The notes below the pieces were generated by a model. It did no database searches. It worked only from the letters and a program-made list of their open reading frames with translations, and was not told the DNA's origin. Shown here one piece after another: positions 981 through 12,026 of a DNA stretch of 15,234 bases (its first letter is position 1; each line of letters begins with the position of its first letter). Source of the stretch: Promethearchaeota archaeon (GTDB lineage: Archaea > Asgardarchaeota > Thorarchaeia > Thorarchaeales > Thorarchaeaceae); NCBI GenBank assembly GCA_027031765.1, contig JALVPN010000080.1, positions 1 through 15,234 of the forward strand, read 5' to 3'. The translations under genes and the position numbers were made by a program.

Positions 981-1556
981 CTACTTGCGGCTGTCCATGT
1001 ACTTGCGGGCCTCCGCTTCTGCGTCCTCTGCCTCTCCATACTCAAATAGCCTCTTATGCGCCGTGGCCAGCAGCTCCCACACCTCCGCGTCCTTGGGCTG
1101 CATCCTCAGGTACAACTTGCAGTATTCCTTGACCCTGTCCCAGTCGCCGAGCTGCTCGTAGCACCGGGCACTGTAGTAGAGCGCACGTTTGTGGTCTCTC
1201 CTTGGGCCCATGAGCTCGTTGAACACCCTCAGTGCTTCTTCCCACTCCCCAGCCTCGTAGTACGCCATGCCCTCCTCGAACTTGGTCTCCATCTCACCGT
1301 AGTCTGACATCCTGGAGGCGATTGCACCGACAGTGGAGAGGGAGCCACAGCAGGCAACGATGGTTGCAATGGCCATTGCCATCCCCACCGCCATGGTCGG
1401 TGACACCGGCAGGATACCGTTCCCCCCCAGCCATGCAACGATGAGCCCTGCCACAACTATGAGCGCAACGAGCACTGCCAGACCACCGACCCCCAGCCCT
1501 CGCGGCAGGCCGGCTCCGACGCTCTCAGGTCCTCTGCTCTCAGGCTCCTCAATCAT
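981..1556 (-). CDS. Membrane-anchored TPR protein (two N-terminal TM helices, ~3 TPR-like units)
   Basis: ORF 981..1730 overlaps the upstream gene, so I place the start at ATG 1556 (MIEEPESR, 191 aa). Hydrophobic segments GLGVGGLAVLVALIVVAGLIVAWL and MAVGMAMAIATIVACCGSL are followed by TPR-type helices (FEEGMAYYEAGEWEEALRVFNEL; ALYYSARCYEQLGDWDRVKEYCKLYL; VWELLATAHKRLFEYGEAEDAEAEA). Confidence 0.8.
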   Translation of the reverse strand: MIEEPESRGPESVGAGLPRGLGVGGLAVLVALIVVAGLIVAWLGGNGILPVSPTMAVGMAMAIATIVACCGSLSTVGAIASRMSDYGEMETKFEEGMAYYEAGEWEEALRVFNELMGPRRDHKRALYYSARCYEQLGDWDRVKEYCKLYLRMQPKDAEVWELLATAHKRLFEYGEAEDAEAEARKYMDSRK

Positions 1557-1599
1557 ACACTCTGGTCTACTGCCGCCCCTTTTAGGTCTGATGAAACCC

Positions 1600-2250
1600 T
1601 CATTGCTGCATGTCATCATTCCTCTCAGCAGCCCGGGCACGTCCTGCCCTGCGTCTGTGCTCCTCTTCGAGGCGTCGTGAACGGAGCCTGTCACGTGCAA
1701 CCTGGAGCCACCGGTGCACACGCGGTGCAAGGGCCGGGTCGAGTGTCATGGCCAGCTCGGCATATGCTATCGCCCGCTCGTCGTCCTCCTCTATGAAGTG
1801 CGCATTGGCCTTGTTATAGAGTGCCTCAGCATAGTCAGGTCGCAGTGCCAGGGCGTGAGTATACGCCTCCATGGCCTTCCGTCCCTCGCCGAGCCTGGAG
1901 AACGTGTTGCCGAGGTTGTTCCAGCACTCCGCGTCCTCGGGTTCCAGCTCCAGCGCCCTCTCGTAGCACTTCCTCGCACCCTTGAAGTCCGCGAGCATGT
2001 ACAACACGTTGCCCTTGTTGTACCAGACCTCAAAGACCATGCTGTCAATGGCCAGCGCCTCGTCATACGCCTTTTCCGCCTCCTCCAACTGGTCGCACTC
2101 TGTCAGTGCAACCCCGAGGTTGTACCATCCTTCTATGGAGTCGGGGTGCTCCTCAGTATACTGCCTGAGCAACTCGACGGCCTCGTCGCTCATGCCGCTC
2201 TCTATCAGGGCGCACGCCCGGCGGATCCGTTCGTCGACGTGGTGGGCCAT
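1600..2250 (-). CDS. Soluble TPR-repeat protein (~5 repeats, basic C-terminal tail)
   Basis: Canonical 34-aa periodicity: GWYNLGVAL..LEEAEKAYDEALAID; VWYNKGNVL..FKGARKCYERALELEP; CWNNLGNTF..RKAMEAYTHALALRP; ALYNKANAH..ERAIAYAELAMTLDP. Confidence 0.92.
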   Translation of the reverse strand: MAHHVDERIRRACALIESGMSDEAVELLRQYTEEHPDSIEGWYNLGVALTECDQLEEAEKAYDEALAIDSMVFEVWYNKGNVLYMLADFKGARKCYERALELEPEDAECWNNLGNTFSRLGEGRKAMEAYTHALALRPDYAEALYNKANAHFIEEDDERAIAYAELAMTLDPALAPRVHRWLQVARDRLRSRRLEEEHRRRAGRARAAERNDDMQQ

Positions 2251-4877: not shown

Positions 4878-6851
4878 TCAGAGCAGGCCGCACGTCCAGA
4901 GTACAATGCGGAGTGCTAGGCGTGCGTCCTGGCTACTATAGTACTCTCCGAGGAGTCCCCAGTTGTCGATGAAGAAGTTCGAGCCGGAAACGACAACTCT
5001 GCCGCCCCCGCTCGTCTCGAGTGCCCCAAGCACCGCATCACCCGCGTACTGGGCCAGCAGGACTGCGCCTGCGGGCAGGACTAGCGGTGCCCCATAGTAG
5101 TCAAAGGACGACACCCCCGTCGTGATGGGGTGGCTGTGAATGCTCGTCACTACGACCGGGTCACTACTGTCACGCCTGATGTAGTCGTCTGCAAGTGCAA
5201 TGCCTGTCCACTGGAGGAACTCGTTTGCGGACGCTATGTCGAGGCTTGAGTTGTCGAGGGCAGCCACGAACAGCCCGCCCCCATGTGTGACGTACTCCTC
5301 ATAGGCACTGGTCTCTTGGTCTGAGAACTCTATGGAGAAGAGGCTTGGTGATAGTGGGTCGGTCTCATTTGAGCCCCAAGCACAGGGGTCGAGGACGACG
5401 ACGCCGTCGTACCTGGCAAGTCTGTCAGCCGTTATCTCCGCCCTCTCCCTGATCTCGGTGACCGATATCCCACTGGCGGTGAGCAGCCTGTAGAGCTCCT
5501 TGAACTGTCCATAGGTCGTGTCAATGGTCCACGGTGTGTGTACTATGTCGAACGCCACCCTGGCCACCGCAGTCCCGGCTGTGATGTTCACCAGCAGTCC
5601 TGCCGTCCCAGCAGTCGCAGAGCTGAATGTGATGTTTGCCCAGTAGTTGGGCGTGCCGTCGTCAGGTATGGCTATTGTGAGCGTGACGTAGCCGGTCTGG
5701 TTCACGGTCACAGCACCGGGCAGGCTGAACACACCGGGTGTCGTTGACTGGACCTCGACACTATAGCTTGCAGTCCAGCTGTTGATGACCTCAATCTCGA
5801 ACGTGTAGTTGTCACCAAAGAAGAGGCGTTCAAAGTCGAGTGGCAGACTCCCCGGGTGGACGTATGTGACTGGTGGCCTGTTGCCCGTGGTGGCCTCCTC
5901 CTGCAACAGTGCGAGGGCGGCATCGGCATTGAGCTTCCCGGCCCCCACAACGTACTCCGGGTATGGCATCTCGGTCGCACCGGCCATCAGTACTGCCTTC
6001 ACCATCCCCGGTGTCCAGGGTATGTCGTTGGTCACGCAGTAATCAATCACTCTGGCCGCTGCCGCTGCGACCCGTGGTGCTGAAAAGCTCGTGCCGACGT
6101 ACATCTTGTTGCCGTGCACCACATAGCCCCTGGCTGCAATGTCGGGCTTCATTGTCCGGCCGGCCGTTGGGCCCCAGCTTGAGTAGTGTGCTGGCATCCC
6201 CGACTCGTTGAGGGCCGCTGCTGCGATTGCGTACTGGAACACTGCTGGTGAGTTGATACTGTTCCCCCGGATGCCGTGGTCTCCCTCGTTGCCGGCCGCC
6301 GCGACCACGACCACGCCGTGTCGGAAGGCCCACTCAACTATGTCTCTCATGGAGTCGTAGATGGTAGGAGTTGACCCAAGGCTGAGGTTGATCACATCGA
6401 CGCCCTGTTCCACGGCCCACTGGATGGCCGCAATGATTGCGGGTGAGGTCGCATGCCCCTCGTTGTCCAAGACCTTTGCAATGACGAGTCGTGCACTGCT
6501 CGCCCCGCTCAGTATTGTTTCGGCAACGATGGTGCCATGGGGTACGCCGCCTGGCCGTGTGTCGTCTGTTGACAGGTCGTTGCCGCTATACCCGTAGACT
6601 GTCCTGATGAAGCTCTGTCTGGCGACGACCCTCTGCTCCTCCACATAGTTCAGGTCGGCCCCGGAGTCGACCACTGCCACCCGCCCCGCGGTGCCGGTAG
6701 GTGCACCACCGGGCGGGTTCAAGAACAGGTACACCGAGGCACTCCCGATGAACAACATGAGGATGATCATCACGCCGACGAGTTTCACTACAGTGGAGGA
6801 GTCAGACTCCGCCGTCTCATTGTAGTAGGGTTCCCAGTAGTGAGTCCTCAA
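4878..6851 (-). CDS. Membrane-anchored S8 subtilase with Site-1-protease-like (MBTPS1/SKI-1) C-terminal domains
   Basis: Complete catalytic set: VAVVDSG (Asp, codon 6668-6666), HGTIVA (His), AAGNEG (oxyanion Asn), GTSFSAP (Ser), plus DVINLSLG, SSWGP and MKPDI. One N-terminal TM helix (VVKLVGVMIILMLFIGSASVYLFL). A beta-rich domain and an alpha/beta GATase-like domain follow the catalytic domain. Likely start is TTG 6851 with GGTGAT at 6855-6860 (657 aa); the ORF track begins at 7001. Confidence 0.88.
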   Translation of the reverse strand: MRTHYWEPYYNETAESDSSTVVKLVGVMIILMLFIGSASVYLFLNPPGGAPTGTAGRVAVVDSGADLNYVEEQRVVARQSFIRTVYGYSGNDLSTDDTRPGGVPHGTIVAETILSGASSARLVIAKVLDNEGHATSPAIIAAIQWAVEQGVDVINLSLGSTPTIYDSMRDIVEWAFRHGVVVVAAAGNEGDHGIRGNSINSPAVFQYAIAAAALNESGMPAHYSSWGPTAGRTMKPDIAARGYVVHGNKMYVGTSFSAPRVAAAAARVIDYCVTNDIPWTPGMVKAVLMAGATEMPYPEYVVGAGKLNADAALALLQEEATTGNRPPVTYVHPGSLPLDFERLFFGDNYTFEIEVINSWTASYSVEVQSTTPGVFSLPGAVTVNQTGYVTLTIAIPDDGTPNYWANITFSSATAGTAGLLVNITAGTAVARVAFDIVHTPWTIDTTYGQFKELYRLLTASGISVTEIRERAEITADRLARYDGVVVLDPCAWGSNETDPLSPSLFSIEFSDQETSAYEEYVTHGGGLFVAALDNSSLDIASANEFLQWTGIALADDYIRRDSSDPVVVTSIHSHPITTGVSSFDYYGAPLVLPAGAVLLAQYAGDAVLGALETSGGGRVVVSGSNFFIDNWGLLGEYYSSQDARLALRIVLWTCGLL

Positions 6852-7062
6852 GCAATCACCATCGCAGTGGCGCAGCAGTGCTGAACTGCATCCTACGGCC
6901 CGCCGGGAGCAACAAATGCAAAAGAACCTATCGGAGGCGAACATGCCTGTCCTCCCGTAGTGCGCAGCCCTTCCCACCGACCAGGACTCGGAAACCTTCA
7001 ATAGGTGGTGTGCCCTCCCCTGCTTGGAGCAGGGTATGAAGTGTCGACTCGCTACAATTTCA

Positions 7063-10039: not shown

Positions 10040-10070
10040 CCTGACTGTGACGGACCTCAACAGTGGTGTC

Positions 10071-12026
10071 ATGACCGTGACACAGCTCGGTCCTGTGGAG
10101 CTACCACCTCCTACACTCCTACTCGCAGTGGTCCTGTGCCTGACGGTCATTGCCACGCTCATCGCATGGGCGTACCGAACGCGTCAGCACCAGGTGGCCG
10201 TCCTTGAGAGACTGCTGTCCCAACAGGCCGTTGTCACACTGCCGGAGCTCGCTCAGGCCCTCAGTTCGCCACGCCTGGACCGCCGGACGCTGGTTTCCAT
10301 CGCCCACCAGTGTGGGGCCGCCCTGCTCAGCGTCGGCTCATCAAAGGTGGTCTCACGGCCCCTCCTCCGACAGAGGTTACACCACCTGCTCACAGAAGAT
10401 GCAGTGGTCCACGTGTCCCGCGTGGCCGACCAGTACGACATCCCTGACGGCGTGGTGGCAGCCCTCGTCGAGGACATCGCAGAGGCGGAGCGTCTGGACG
10501 TCGTGCGCACAACAGATGGCGACTACATCTTCGTCCCAGACCTCAAGGCCCGTATCCGGGATGTGCTCGCCTTGCACGGCCGTGTCGACCTGGCATCCGA
10601 GGCACAGCGCATGCGGGTGGGTGCTGACGACCTCCTTGGGCTTGTCCAGCGCTGGGGGTGGCGCCTGCTCGAGACCGACAATAACGTGGTGTTCTCCGCC
10701 GACTGGCTCAAGGACACCCTGAGTCGCATTGTTTCCAGAGCCGGCCACCTTGACATCGGGGCCGCAGCCGAAGAGATTGGGGTCACCCGACTGGAACTGA
10801 TGCGGTTCATCCGAGACCTGGGATGGGAAATGGTGACCACAGACGATGGCCACTGGGTGCCCAGGAGCGTCCTGCTCAGCTCCCTGCGGTCAGAGCTGTC
10901 TGCCGGCCGTCCCATGCAGTATGGGGCGCTGGCCACAGCACTGGCGGTGGACCGGAAGACCCTGGAAGACCTCCTGGATGACCTTGAGGAGGAGCTCGAG
11001 GTGGTGCGCACCAGTTCCCACGTGTTCTCTGCCGTGTACCTGCGTCAGAGGCTTGCTGGGGAGCTACAACGCAAGGGCAAGGTCGACCCGGAGGAGGTTG
11101 CCCGCCGCTATGGTGTTGCCGCTGACAGTATTGTCGGGGCGATGCGCGGCCTCCCGGACACGAGAGTGGCGAAGAGTGGGACCGTGGTATATCTCCCGGC
11201 CCTCCGTAAGTGGGTCACCGACCGGGCGCTCCGAAAGGGTATCATCACCGCCCGCGACGCTGCCTGGTGGGGCCTGTCACAGGTCGAGATGTCCTTCCTC
11301 CTGAAACGGTTCGACCTGCGCTTCATCCTCTCAAGAGGGGGCGACTGTATTGCTCTCGCGTGGGTCAACCGGTATGTGGAGTCGGAGATCAACGCAGGGC
11401 GCACAGTGGACGTCGAGTCGTTGGCCAGCCGCTTTGATATTGAGCCTGGAGTCGCTGAGGCACTCCTGTCCCAGGTCGAGGCCGACGCGGTCTTTACAAG
11501 AACGGGCAGACTGGTGCCGCGACAGCAGCTGGTCAAGGAGCTGTCATCCACCCTCGACCGTTCGGGCTTCATCGACCCTACAACTACCGCCCAGGCCCTC
11601 GGACTGGAGCCCTCGGTGGTCTCTCACATCGTCGAGTCGCTCAGCCAGCACCCGCTGCGTACGCGCGCTGGGAACTACGTCACAGAAGAGGCCATCCTAC
11701 GTCGTGCACGCTGGCATCTCGACAACAAAGGGTTCTACGATGTCCATGCATGGGCCGTGCACCTCGACATCGAAGTGGAGGAACTGTTGGGCGTCCTGTC
11801 CCCTGTACTGAGACCTGGCGAGCACTTTGTGGGCCCTGCTGGCCTCCTGGTAACAGACGAGTTCGTGGCATCCCTCCGCCGACTGGCACGCCGCCCTAAT
11901 GGACTCCCTGTGACCACTCATGCAAAGCACCTTGGGATGCGGCGTGGGGCGCTCATGGCACTGCTGCGTGACAGCGTGGAGGGGAAGTACGAGTCGCGCT
12001 CTGACAGGTACGTGTCGAGCACCTGA
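10071..12026 (+). CDS. Single-pass membrane protein with ~11 tandem winged-helix-like repeats (UFL1/DDRGK1-like)
   Basis: One TM helix (TLLLAVVLCLTVIATLIAWAY) followed by repeats of about 55 aa: helix - G-x-[VIL]-[DT] - helix - helix - beta hairpin (T-x-D/x-G-x-[YVW]-[IV]). Start at ATG 10071 (or GTG 10047), 31 nt after the ATPase stop. The repeats are visible in the sequence; the family assignment is inference. Confidence 0.8.
   Translation: MTVTQLGPVELPPPTLLLAVVLCLTVIATLIAWAYRTRQHQVAVLERLLSQQAVVTLPELAQALSSPRLDRRTLVSIAHQCGAALLSVGSSKVVSRPLLRQRLHHLLTEDAVVHVSRVADQYDIPDGVVAALVEDIAEAERLDVVRTTDGDYIFVPDLKARIRDVLALHGRVDLASEAQRMRVGADDLLGLVQRWGWRLLETDNNVVFSADWLKDTLSRIVSRAGHLDIGAAAEEIGVTRLELMRFIRDLGWEMVTTDDGHWVPRSVLLSSLRSELSAGRPMQYGALATALAVDRKTLEDLLDDLEEELEVVRTSSHVFSAVYLRQRLAGELQRKGKVDPEEVARRYGVAADSIVGAMRGLPDTRVAKSGTVVYLPALRKWVTDRALRKGIITARDAAWWGLSQVEMSFLLKRFDLRFILSRGGDCIALAWVNRYVESEINAGRTVDVESLASRFDIEPGVAEALLSQVEADAVFTRTGRLVPRQQLVKELSSTLDRSGFIDPTTTAQALGLEPSVVSHIVESLSQHPLRTRAGNYVTEEAILRRARWHLDNKGFYDVHAWAVHLDIEVEELLGVLSPVLRPGEHFVGPAGLLVTDEFVASLRRLARRPNGLPVTTHAKHLGMRRGALMALLRDSVEGKYESRSDRYVSST

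Follow-up and report, generated by a model that had tools for sequence, protein, structure and literature searches.

The window, by which we mean the whole 15,234-nucleotide stretch of DNA analyzed here (positions 1 to 15,234 of contig JALVPN010000080.1, GenBank assembly GCA_027031765.1), comes from an Asgard archaeon of the Thorarchaeia and carries on its reverse strand a gene for a 657-residue subtilase with a predicted N-terminal membrane anchor, in which a peptidase S8 domain is followed by a β-sandwich and a GIFT domain. The same order of domains is seen in the eukaryotic site-1 protease (S1P, also known as SKI-1 or MBTPS1), and the likeness between the two runs through all three domains, both in the predicted structure and in sequence-profile alignments. 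On balance, we favor the interpretation that the window protein is a surface-tethered protease whose three-domain body was inherited from a single fusion that was also ancestral to S1P, rather than having been assembled twice, and that it sits on a derived branch of what we hereinafter call the S8-β-GIFT family.

S1P starts SREBP and ATF6 signaling and processes many other proteins of the secretory pathway. It cleaves after R-X-(hydrophobic)-X in lumenal loops of membrane-bound transcription factors and is activated by SPRING, while its accessory β-sandwich and GIFT domains were reportedly recognized only with the structures of 2024. A literature search found no paper that combines Asgard archaea with site-1 protease/MBTPS1 or that links S1P to archaea.

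Structural likeness to S1P across three domains

The published architecture of S1P comprises a Peptidase S8 domain (residues 187–478), a "P-like" β-sandwich (479–616) and a GIFT subdomain (617–998), with the last of these lying against the loops in which the oxyanion asparagine is situated (PMC11231238). For comparison, we used an AlphaFold2 model of the whole window protein, built with no templates (pLDDT 89.3, pTM 0.85), together with a model of the C-terminal part comprising the β-sandwich and the GIFT domain (the β-GIFT module; pLDDT 93.4). In a Foldseek search of the PDB with the whole model, the top matches were the human S1P chains 9csd_A (E = 1.2e-33, TM-score by query 0.70) and 8uw8_A (E = 2.8e-33, TM-score 0.68), aligned over 713–732 columns; the next match, Vpr, covers only 437 columns and the subtilisins about 270. 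Comparably, VIA-align places residues 53–657 of the model on residues 206–874 of S1P (Z 39.5, root-mean-square deviation (rmsd) 3.1, 544 residues), as compared to a Z of about 33.5 over 236 residues for subtilisins. Among the cluster representatives of the ESM Atlas compared by shape, the nearest is an arthropod S1P cluster (TM-score 0.74, 548 aligned residues); the TM-score falls to 0.62 for a plant S1P cluster, to no more than 0.55 for other S8 clusters and to values under 0.5 for bacterial S8 clusters.

The part beyond the protease domain was also compared on its own. Residues 1–333 of the module model superpose on S1P 478–874 in VIA-align, and the TM-score of the module to S1P lies between 0.61 and 0.64. 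Among the PDB chains compared, S1P is the only one that covers the β-sandwich as well as the GIFT domain (Foldseek E = 1.7e-13 over 412 columns). That the three extracytoplasmic domains are arranged in the same order and packed against one another as in S1P is, hence, a prediction of the models that we consider well supported. An earlier note on this DNA, made from the letters of the sequence alone, had claimed an S1P-like architecture continuing past the catalytic core and had proposed a model with a Foldseek search as a way to check it; the claim stands up in domain order, colinearity and mutual packing, whether examined with Foldseek, VIA-align, the Atlas or the profiles described below.

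A continuous sequence match beyond the catalytic core

We compared the family with the PDB using three principal sequence profiles: A4 represents the C-terminal β-GIFT module and was widened with distant relatives, A7 the full-length family and A8 the segment from the KPDI motif to the C-terminus. With A8, S1P ranks first (E = 1.9e-24), above Vpr and tripeptidyl-peptidase 2. The A7 profile aligns S1P in one stretch, with profile positions 10–625 falling on S1P residues 193–851, while all its other PDB matches end near profile position 302–317. A4, in turn, recovers IFT52 (E = 3.9e-14) and S1P (E = 4e-8). The HMMER alignments to the PDB S1P chain display the S1P motifs YGRMKPDIV, NPASMKQALIASA, QGHGKLD, SGYLAISISV, RVLWDQYH, NFRDMYQHLRSMGYFVE, YGTLLMVD, IPALNELLSVWNMGFSD and GGGRIVLYGDSNCLDD, each of which lines up with the corresponding columns of the family; the motif pairs that the earlier note had set side by side are all real and colinear. 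From these profile alignments, we judge the match of the family to S1P beyond the catalytic core to be well beyond chance.

This match emerges at the level of the family rather than of the single protein, which shares just 17–23% identity with S1P. Among the PDB searches with the C-terminal part, S1P was reached by the widened profile A4 alone: a single-sequence phmmer search of the PDB with the C-terminal 340 residues gave matches at the level of chance, and a C-terminal profile made from Thorarchaeota only (A2) recovered IFT52 at E = 0.013 and no S1P. For the β-sandwich alone, sequence similarity to S1P is not significant, the A4 profile matching S1P only from profile position 94 onward. A language-model search with the C-terminal part placed the eukaryotic MBTPS1_3rd/4th cluster first (score 0.85), which we treat as a lead only.

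The gene, its start and the domains of its product

The reading frame on the reverse strand is uninterrupted from position 7001 down to its stop codon, and its start could be placed at several points, the longest open frame beginning at 7001 and the database gene call at an ATG at 6944. We accept the TTG at 6851 as the best-supported start because the N-termini of the homologues and the onset of tblastn similarity agree on it: 33 homologues start with "M..YW", i.e., 2–3 residues ahead of a conserved YW that is followed by a hydrophobic helix, and in 7 of 12 syntenic Thorarchaeial loci the tblastn similarity starts at residue 1–4 of the translation from 6851. All residue numbers given here are counted from this codon. 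The YW dipeptide itself, which lies in the predicted cytoplasmic tail, is conserved within the subfamily of the gene under study, one of two short Thorarchaeial ones, and could be a sorting or interaction motif.

The single N-terminal helix is predicted to act as a type II signal anchor (Table 1). A linker of about 10 residues separates it from the S8 domain, and the strand carrying Asp62 lies within about 15 residues of it. As this gap leaves no room for one, the protein has no prodomain, and neither the alignment nor the model shows a prodomain or a cleaved signal peptide of the S1P type. At the other end, the chain terminates with the GIFT domain, the hydropathy scan and the model both indicating that the N-terminal helix is the only hydrophobic one and that there is no C-terminal membrane helix.

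The catalytic domain is recognized by the Pfam model PF00082, Peptidase_S8, with 120.3 bits against a cut-off of 21.8 (E = 1.3e-34). Its Asp62, His105 and Ser255, along with the oxyanion Asn188, are invariant across a 54-sequence alignment of the family, and it superposes on subtilisin BPN' in VIA-align with a Z of 33.9 and an rmsd of 1.7 over 236 residues at 34–36% identity. By Pfam match, order of residues and fold, the protein belongs to subfamily S8A of peptidase family S8. The gene is intact and retains the full set of catalytic residues, and the protease is predicted to be competent. Downstream of the S8 domain, the β-rich and α/β domains that the earlier note had described are both present. 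The α/β domain is a GIFT domain by fold and by the match of the family profile to IFT52, although Pfam detects its region weakly: on the window protein, the matches remain sub-threshold (ThuA at about 20–22 bits against a cut-off of 33.4, and DUF4350), while across the protein and its family the weak matches comprise ThuA, IFT52_GIFT (in 6 of 34 members, best E = 2.6e-4), DUF4350, OST48_N and MBTPS1_4th (PF23090, in 1 of 34 members, E = 0.026). A cysteine in the "LDPCAW" motif of this domain was considered as an amidotransferase-like nucleophile and rejected, being a phenylalanine in some members and missing from the consensus of the long forms.

Table 1. Positions of the S8-β-GIFT gene and its parts, its paralogues in the same genome and genes of the neighborhood discussed in the text (window coordinates unless a contig is named)
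Feature	Position	Strand	Basis or remark
Whole S8-β-GIFT gene	4878..6851	-	657 codons plus stop at 4878-4880; TTG start at 6851
Cytoplasmic N-terminal tail, residues 1-23 (predicted)	6783..6851	-	Family alignments; low pLDDT in model
Single N-terminal transmembrane helix, residues 24-42	6726..6782	-	Hydropathy scan, model helix 20-44, family conservation
Peptidase S8 catalytic domain, residues ~53-320	5892..6695	-	Pfam PF00082
Catalytic codons	Asp62 6666-6668; His105 6537-6539; oxyanion Asn188 6288-6290; Ser255 6087-6089	-	
β-sandwich, residues ~325-427	5571..5879	-	Models; sits where S1P has its "P-like" subdomain
GIFT domain (class I glutamine-amidotransferase-like α/β fold), residues ~428-657	4881..5570	-	Profile A4, VIA-align
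Second short S8-β-GIFT paralogue	C174:17345-18391	+	Same genome
Long S8-β-GIFT form	C198:5233-6168	-	Same genome; signal peptide, C-terminal membrane helix and basic tail
Type II P-type cation ATPase, 976 residues	7109-10039	+	Cation_ATPase_N, E1-E2, Cation_ATPase_C
659-residue protein	10047-12026	+	Weak E3_UFM1_ligase match
First TPR-protein frame	981-1730	-	
Second TPR-protein frame	1600-2250	-	

The family in Asgard archaea and other prokaryotes

An exhaustive profile search collected 614 proteins of the family. Those of the close homologues that come with organism names are all from Candidatus Thorarchaeota. Many other members are about 1000–1300 residues long, with the S8 domain at about 150–420 and the β-GIFT module at about 480–800, and according to a hydropathy scan the majority of them start with a signal-like segment and carry a transmembrane helix in their final ~30 residues; named examples are from Odinarchaeota, Heimdallarchaeota and "Promethearchaeota". 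Across the Asgard archaea, the β-GIFT profile matches 398 of 400 genomes, covering all 33 families, with E-values down to 1e-111 and usually several copies per genome, a part of these matches being GIFT-only proteins. The subfamilies are deeply diverged, with identities of 20–30%. Three S8-β-GIFT genes occur in the genome to which the window belongs, namely the window gene, a second short paralogue and a long form with the topology of S1P (Table 1); approximately eight more frames in the same genome, of roughly 350–1350 residues, carry the GIFT domain without an S8 domain.

Comparison of the window protein with the long forms, among them P0163 from Heimdallarchaeota, P0116 from Odinarchaeota and the paralogue from its own genome, shows the same core at 20–33% identity. 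In contrast to the window protein, which has none of these features, the long forms display a signal-like N-terminus, a segment ahead of the S8 domain, extra C-terminal sequence and a C-terminal helix. They thereby resemble S1P in having a signal peptide and a C-terminal anchor with a basic tail, as well as in length (about 1000 residues against the 1052 of S1P). A maximum-likelihood tree of 41 family members joins the two short Thorarchaeial clades as sisters (support 100/100), and an Odinarchaeial sequence is sister to the pair; under midpoint rooting, this whole group falls among the long forms. Hence, as far as midpoint rooting alone can indicate, the N-terminally anchored, prodomain-free Thorarchaeial form looks derived.

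Outside the Asgard archaea, we sampled 1107 genomes from seven phyla, picked by means of a 16S pattern scan (TACK, Thermococci, Thermoplasmatota and many bacterial phyla lie outside this sample). The β-GIFT profile matched 65 of them: 26 of 201 in Halobacteriota, 18 of 151 in Bacteroidota, 12 of 151 in Bacillota, 4 of 101 in Chloroflexota, 2 of 201 in Pseudomonadota, 2 of 151 in Nanoarchaeota and 1 of 151 in Actinomycetota. These are weak matches: the best E-value is 3e-27, the bulk lie in the range from 1e-8 to 1e-15, and almost all are confined to the GIFT part. The S8 model matched no frame in any of the 42 non-Asgard loci examined, and the full-length profile, when run against five whole genomes outside the Asgard archaea, matched over the S8 part only. 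Among the genomes searched, then, the S8-linked β-GIFT module was found only in Asgard archaea, which is to be read as not found in those searched rather than as absent elsewhere.

By shape, the reach of the module is wider. In the ESM Atlas, it is also recovered on M28 peptidases of Chloroflexota, GH88 glucuronyl hydrolases of Bacteroidota and certain Bacillota proteins (TM-score by query 0.65–0.72). To judge from these models, the bacterial carriers suggest that the β-GIFT combination is a mobile accessory module of extracellular hydrolases.

One fusion or two

Several observations weigh against a fusion common to the window protein and S1P, and they lend themselves to an alternative, which we regard as unlikely, namely that the architecture is convergent, an ordinary archaeal S8A protease having gained a mobile β-GIFT module independently of the fusion that gave rise to S1P. 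If the module is mobile, its fusion to an S8 domain could have taken place repeatedly, and residues 1–332 of its model fit the above-mentioned bacterial proteins as well as they fit S1P. The individual domains, moreover, show their strongest affinities elsewhere. A profile of the Thorarchaeial S8 domain retrieves subtilisin BPN' from the PDB with E = 4e-40 while S1P is outside the best 60 matches, and the corresponding long-form profile scores Tk-SP (4.8e-76), Vpr (3.9e-68) and BPN' (5e-65) ahead of S1P (6.6e-61). By these scores, the catalytic domain is of a generic S8A type, without any particular closeness to S1P. The GIFT domain taken alone is nearer to IFT52 (VIA-align Z 25.1, rmsd 2.1, 203 residues) than to OST48 (Z 21.4) or S1P (Z 20.9). 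Likewise, Pfam and NCBIfam scans of the protein and the family yielded no S1P-type family over its cut-off; MBTPS1_3rd (PF23094) and MBTPS1_4th have no match on the window protein at E ≤ 1, and in a six-frame search of the whole genome neither passed its cut-off. Finally, the window protein has no prodomain and is anchored at the end opposite to that of S1P.

The earlier note had itself named two outcomes that would count against its idea, and both came about in part. One was that the C-terminal domains would match generic archaeal surface-protein domains as well as or better than S1P: the isolated GIFT domain does prefer another protein, IFT52, by profile as well as by structure, while the module as a whole does match S1P, including the β-sandwich. 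The other was a catalytic domain grouping away from S1P, which is seen in the ranking of scores, where BPN', Tk-SP and Vpr come ahead, such a ranking being distinct from a phylogeny.

Against independent assembly stands the behavior of the three domains as a unit: they superpose on S1P as one body and a single continuous profile alignment spans all of them, with the values given above. The known proteins to which the single domains lean do not offer this combination. IFT52 and OST48 (PDB 5FMR, 5FMS, 8B6L), the bacterial STM1381/STM3548 and ThuA-like proteins have the same fold as the C-terminal domain, but none of them has a protease or a preceding β-sandwich, and their roles lie in intraflagellar transport, in the oligosaccharyltransferase complex or in unknown cytoplasmic functions. 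Tk-SP of Thermococcus kodakarensis and Vpr of Bacillus (PDB 3AFG, 9UES, 8JMW), the closest catalytic domains to the long Asgard forms by profile score, do have a β-rich domain after the S8 domain, as in the Asgard family; however, they lack a GIFT domain, possess prodomains, are secreted without an N-terminal helix anchor, and structural coverage with them ends at about 430 columns. Furthermore, the S8-linked form is restricted to Asgard archaea among the genomes searched, and its long versions share with S1P not only the three-domain core but also the signal peptide, the C-terminal anchor with its basic tail and a length of about 1050 residues.

Set against S1P directly (PDB 8UW8, 8UWC, 9CSD; PMC11231238), the window protein has in common the order S8, β-sandwich and GIFT, the Asp/His/Ser triad with the oxyanion asparagine, and a membrane tether that keeps the catalytic part outside the cytoplasm. 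It differs in that S1P has a signal peptide and autoinhibitory A/B prodomains removed by autoproteolysis, and is a type I protein anchored by a C-terminal helix with a short basic tail, while the window protein is held by its N-terminal helix. The GIFT domain comprises about 230 residues in the window protein as compared to about 380 in S1P (617–998). The SPRING partner, the substrates of the SREBP/ATF6 type and the cleavage motif of S1P have no known counterparts for the window protein. We posit that these differences arose within a family of common descent, the Thorarchaeia-specific branch having given up the signal peptide, the segment ahead of the S8 domain and the anchor at the C-terminus in favor of anchoring by the N-terminus.

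With a shared fusion, the direction of transfer also comes into question, as the full architecture is common to eukaryotes and Asgard archaea and similarity by itself gives no direction. Acquisition of the Asgard family from a eukaryote, with S1P as the donor rather than the descendant, nevertheless appears very improbable to us. The presence of the family, usually in several copies, in nearly every Asgard genome searched, the deep divergence of its subfamilies and the location of the gene in a conserved archaeal gene order all speak against it, and the minimal GIFT domain of 230 residues looks less derived than the corresponding region of S1P. Descent of S1P from the Asgard family is plausible for the family, the window gene itself being a derived variant. 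Whether this descent was vertical, with archaeal enzymes already performing site-specific, membrane-proximal cleavage and some of their products then being cut by M50 proteases, is a further proposition that we consider decidedly doubtful.

A predicted endoprotease of the cell surface

Under the favored interpretation of a body inherited from one fusion, the short cytoplasmic tail and the N-terminal helix would hold the S8 domain outside the cell, where the β-sandwich and the GIFT domain would buttress it. By analogy with the structure of S1P, the β-sandwich may protect a hydrophobic surface of the protease domain and aid its folding in the absence of a prodomain, which would explain how the protein functions without one. 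The GIFT domain, by the same analogy, may pack on the loops with the oxyanion asparagine, stabilize them and restrict access to the active-site cleft. Such restricted access would favor an endoprotease that cuts proteins at or near the cell surface, and this is the activity we propose for the enzyme.

A different and possible, if somewhat unlikely, role is nutritional, with the protease digesting detrital protein outside the cell and the neighboring transporter of the major facilitator superfamily (MFS) importing the products. The enzyme is tethered to the surface and looks active, its S8A domain being of a generic kind close to BPN'; in 10 of 12 related genomes, the MFS gene immediately follows that of the subtilase on the same strand; extracellular S8A peptidases are widespread in sediment archaea (PMC9123169); and the DNA derives from a hydrothermal vent metagenome (see below). 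On the other hand, the MFS_1 family is not peptide-specific, synteny within one archaeal family may reflect kinship only, and the study just cited concluded that extracellular peptidase genes do not predict protein catabolism (PMC9123169). A GIFT domain lying over the S8 loops would, in addition, suggest restricted access to the active site, as in S1P (PMC11231238).

The earlier note had further suggested that site-2-type proteases be sought in the genome as a sign of S1P-type signaling. M50 proteases are indeed encoded there in three copies, but they are also found in all 14 control genomes, and their presence therefore carries no weight; a role in regulated intramembrane proteolysis is accordingly unsupported.

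Genomic neighborhood

The contig with the gene belongs to a genome of 2.95 Mb that is 95% complete, and a single sequencing run was found to contain the DNA, a metagenome from a hydrothermal vent that is probably the sample of origin. The archaeal host proposed in the earlier note is borne out, the organism being an Asgard archaeon of the Thorarchaeota. Genes for unk320, two TPR proteins, a PHP protein, the MFS transporter and the S8-β-GIFT protease follow one another in this order, divergent from an array coding for a P-type ATPase, a winged-helix protein and PanB. The order is preserved in 10–11 of 12 genomes that represent several genera of one Thorarchaeial family. The conservation across genera indicates that the subtilase gene is native and not a contamination; we do not read it as a functional link, the compared genomes all being from one family.

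The divergent ATPase is of type II and adjoins the subtilase gene in 11 of the 12 related genomes. Subtilases and the GIFT domain of S1P bind calcium, and a connection between a calcium-type ATPase and a calcium-dependent subtilase is speculation. The 659-residue winged-helix protein next to it, which recurs at the corresponding position of 6 of the 12 syntenic Thorarchaeial loci, has a weak match to E3_UFM1_ligase (PF09743; E = 9e-8, 32.5 bits against a cut-off of 23.2), in which no single stretch passes alone and alongside which other winged-helix-type domains are also weakly matched; this is possibly a eukaryotic-style protein akin to UFL1. The two TPR-protein frames overlap by approximately 130 bases, and homologues align to the first of them only from about residue 102. 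The true start of that frame probably lies further downstream, with the overlap being an artifact of choosing the longest open reading frame.

Implications

The new elements of this analysis are the ranking of S1P as the top PDB match for the segment from KPDI to the end, its alignment to the family in one stretch, the sampling of non-Asgard genomes, the identification of bacterial non-S8 carriers of the β-GIFT module and the placement of the short Thorarchaeial form as a derived branch. The importance of the finding lies in the family rather than in the window gene. Present in nearly all Asgard genomes searched, the S8-β-GIFT family constitutes a testable candidate for the prokaryotic root of S1P, and the Thorarchaeial form, being compact and free of a prodomain, may lend itself more readily than S1P to studies of the roles of P-like and GIFT domains in subtilases. 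If S1P did descend vertically from this family, it would be a previously unlisted eukaryotic signature protein; and if the archaeal enzymes already performed membrane-proximal cleavage followed by that of M50 proteases, the principle of regulated intramembrane proteolysis in two steps would be older than the eukaryotes.

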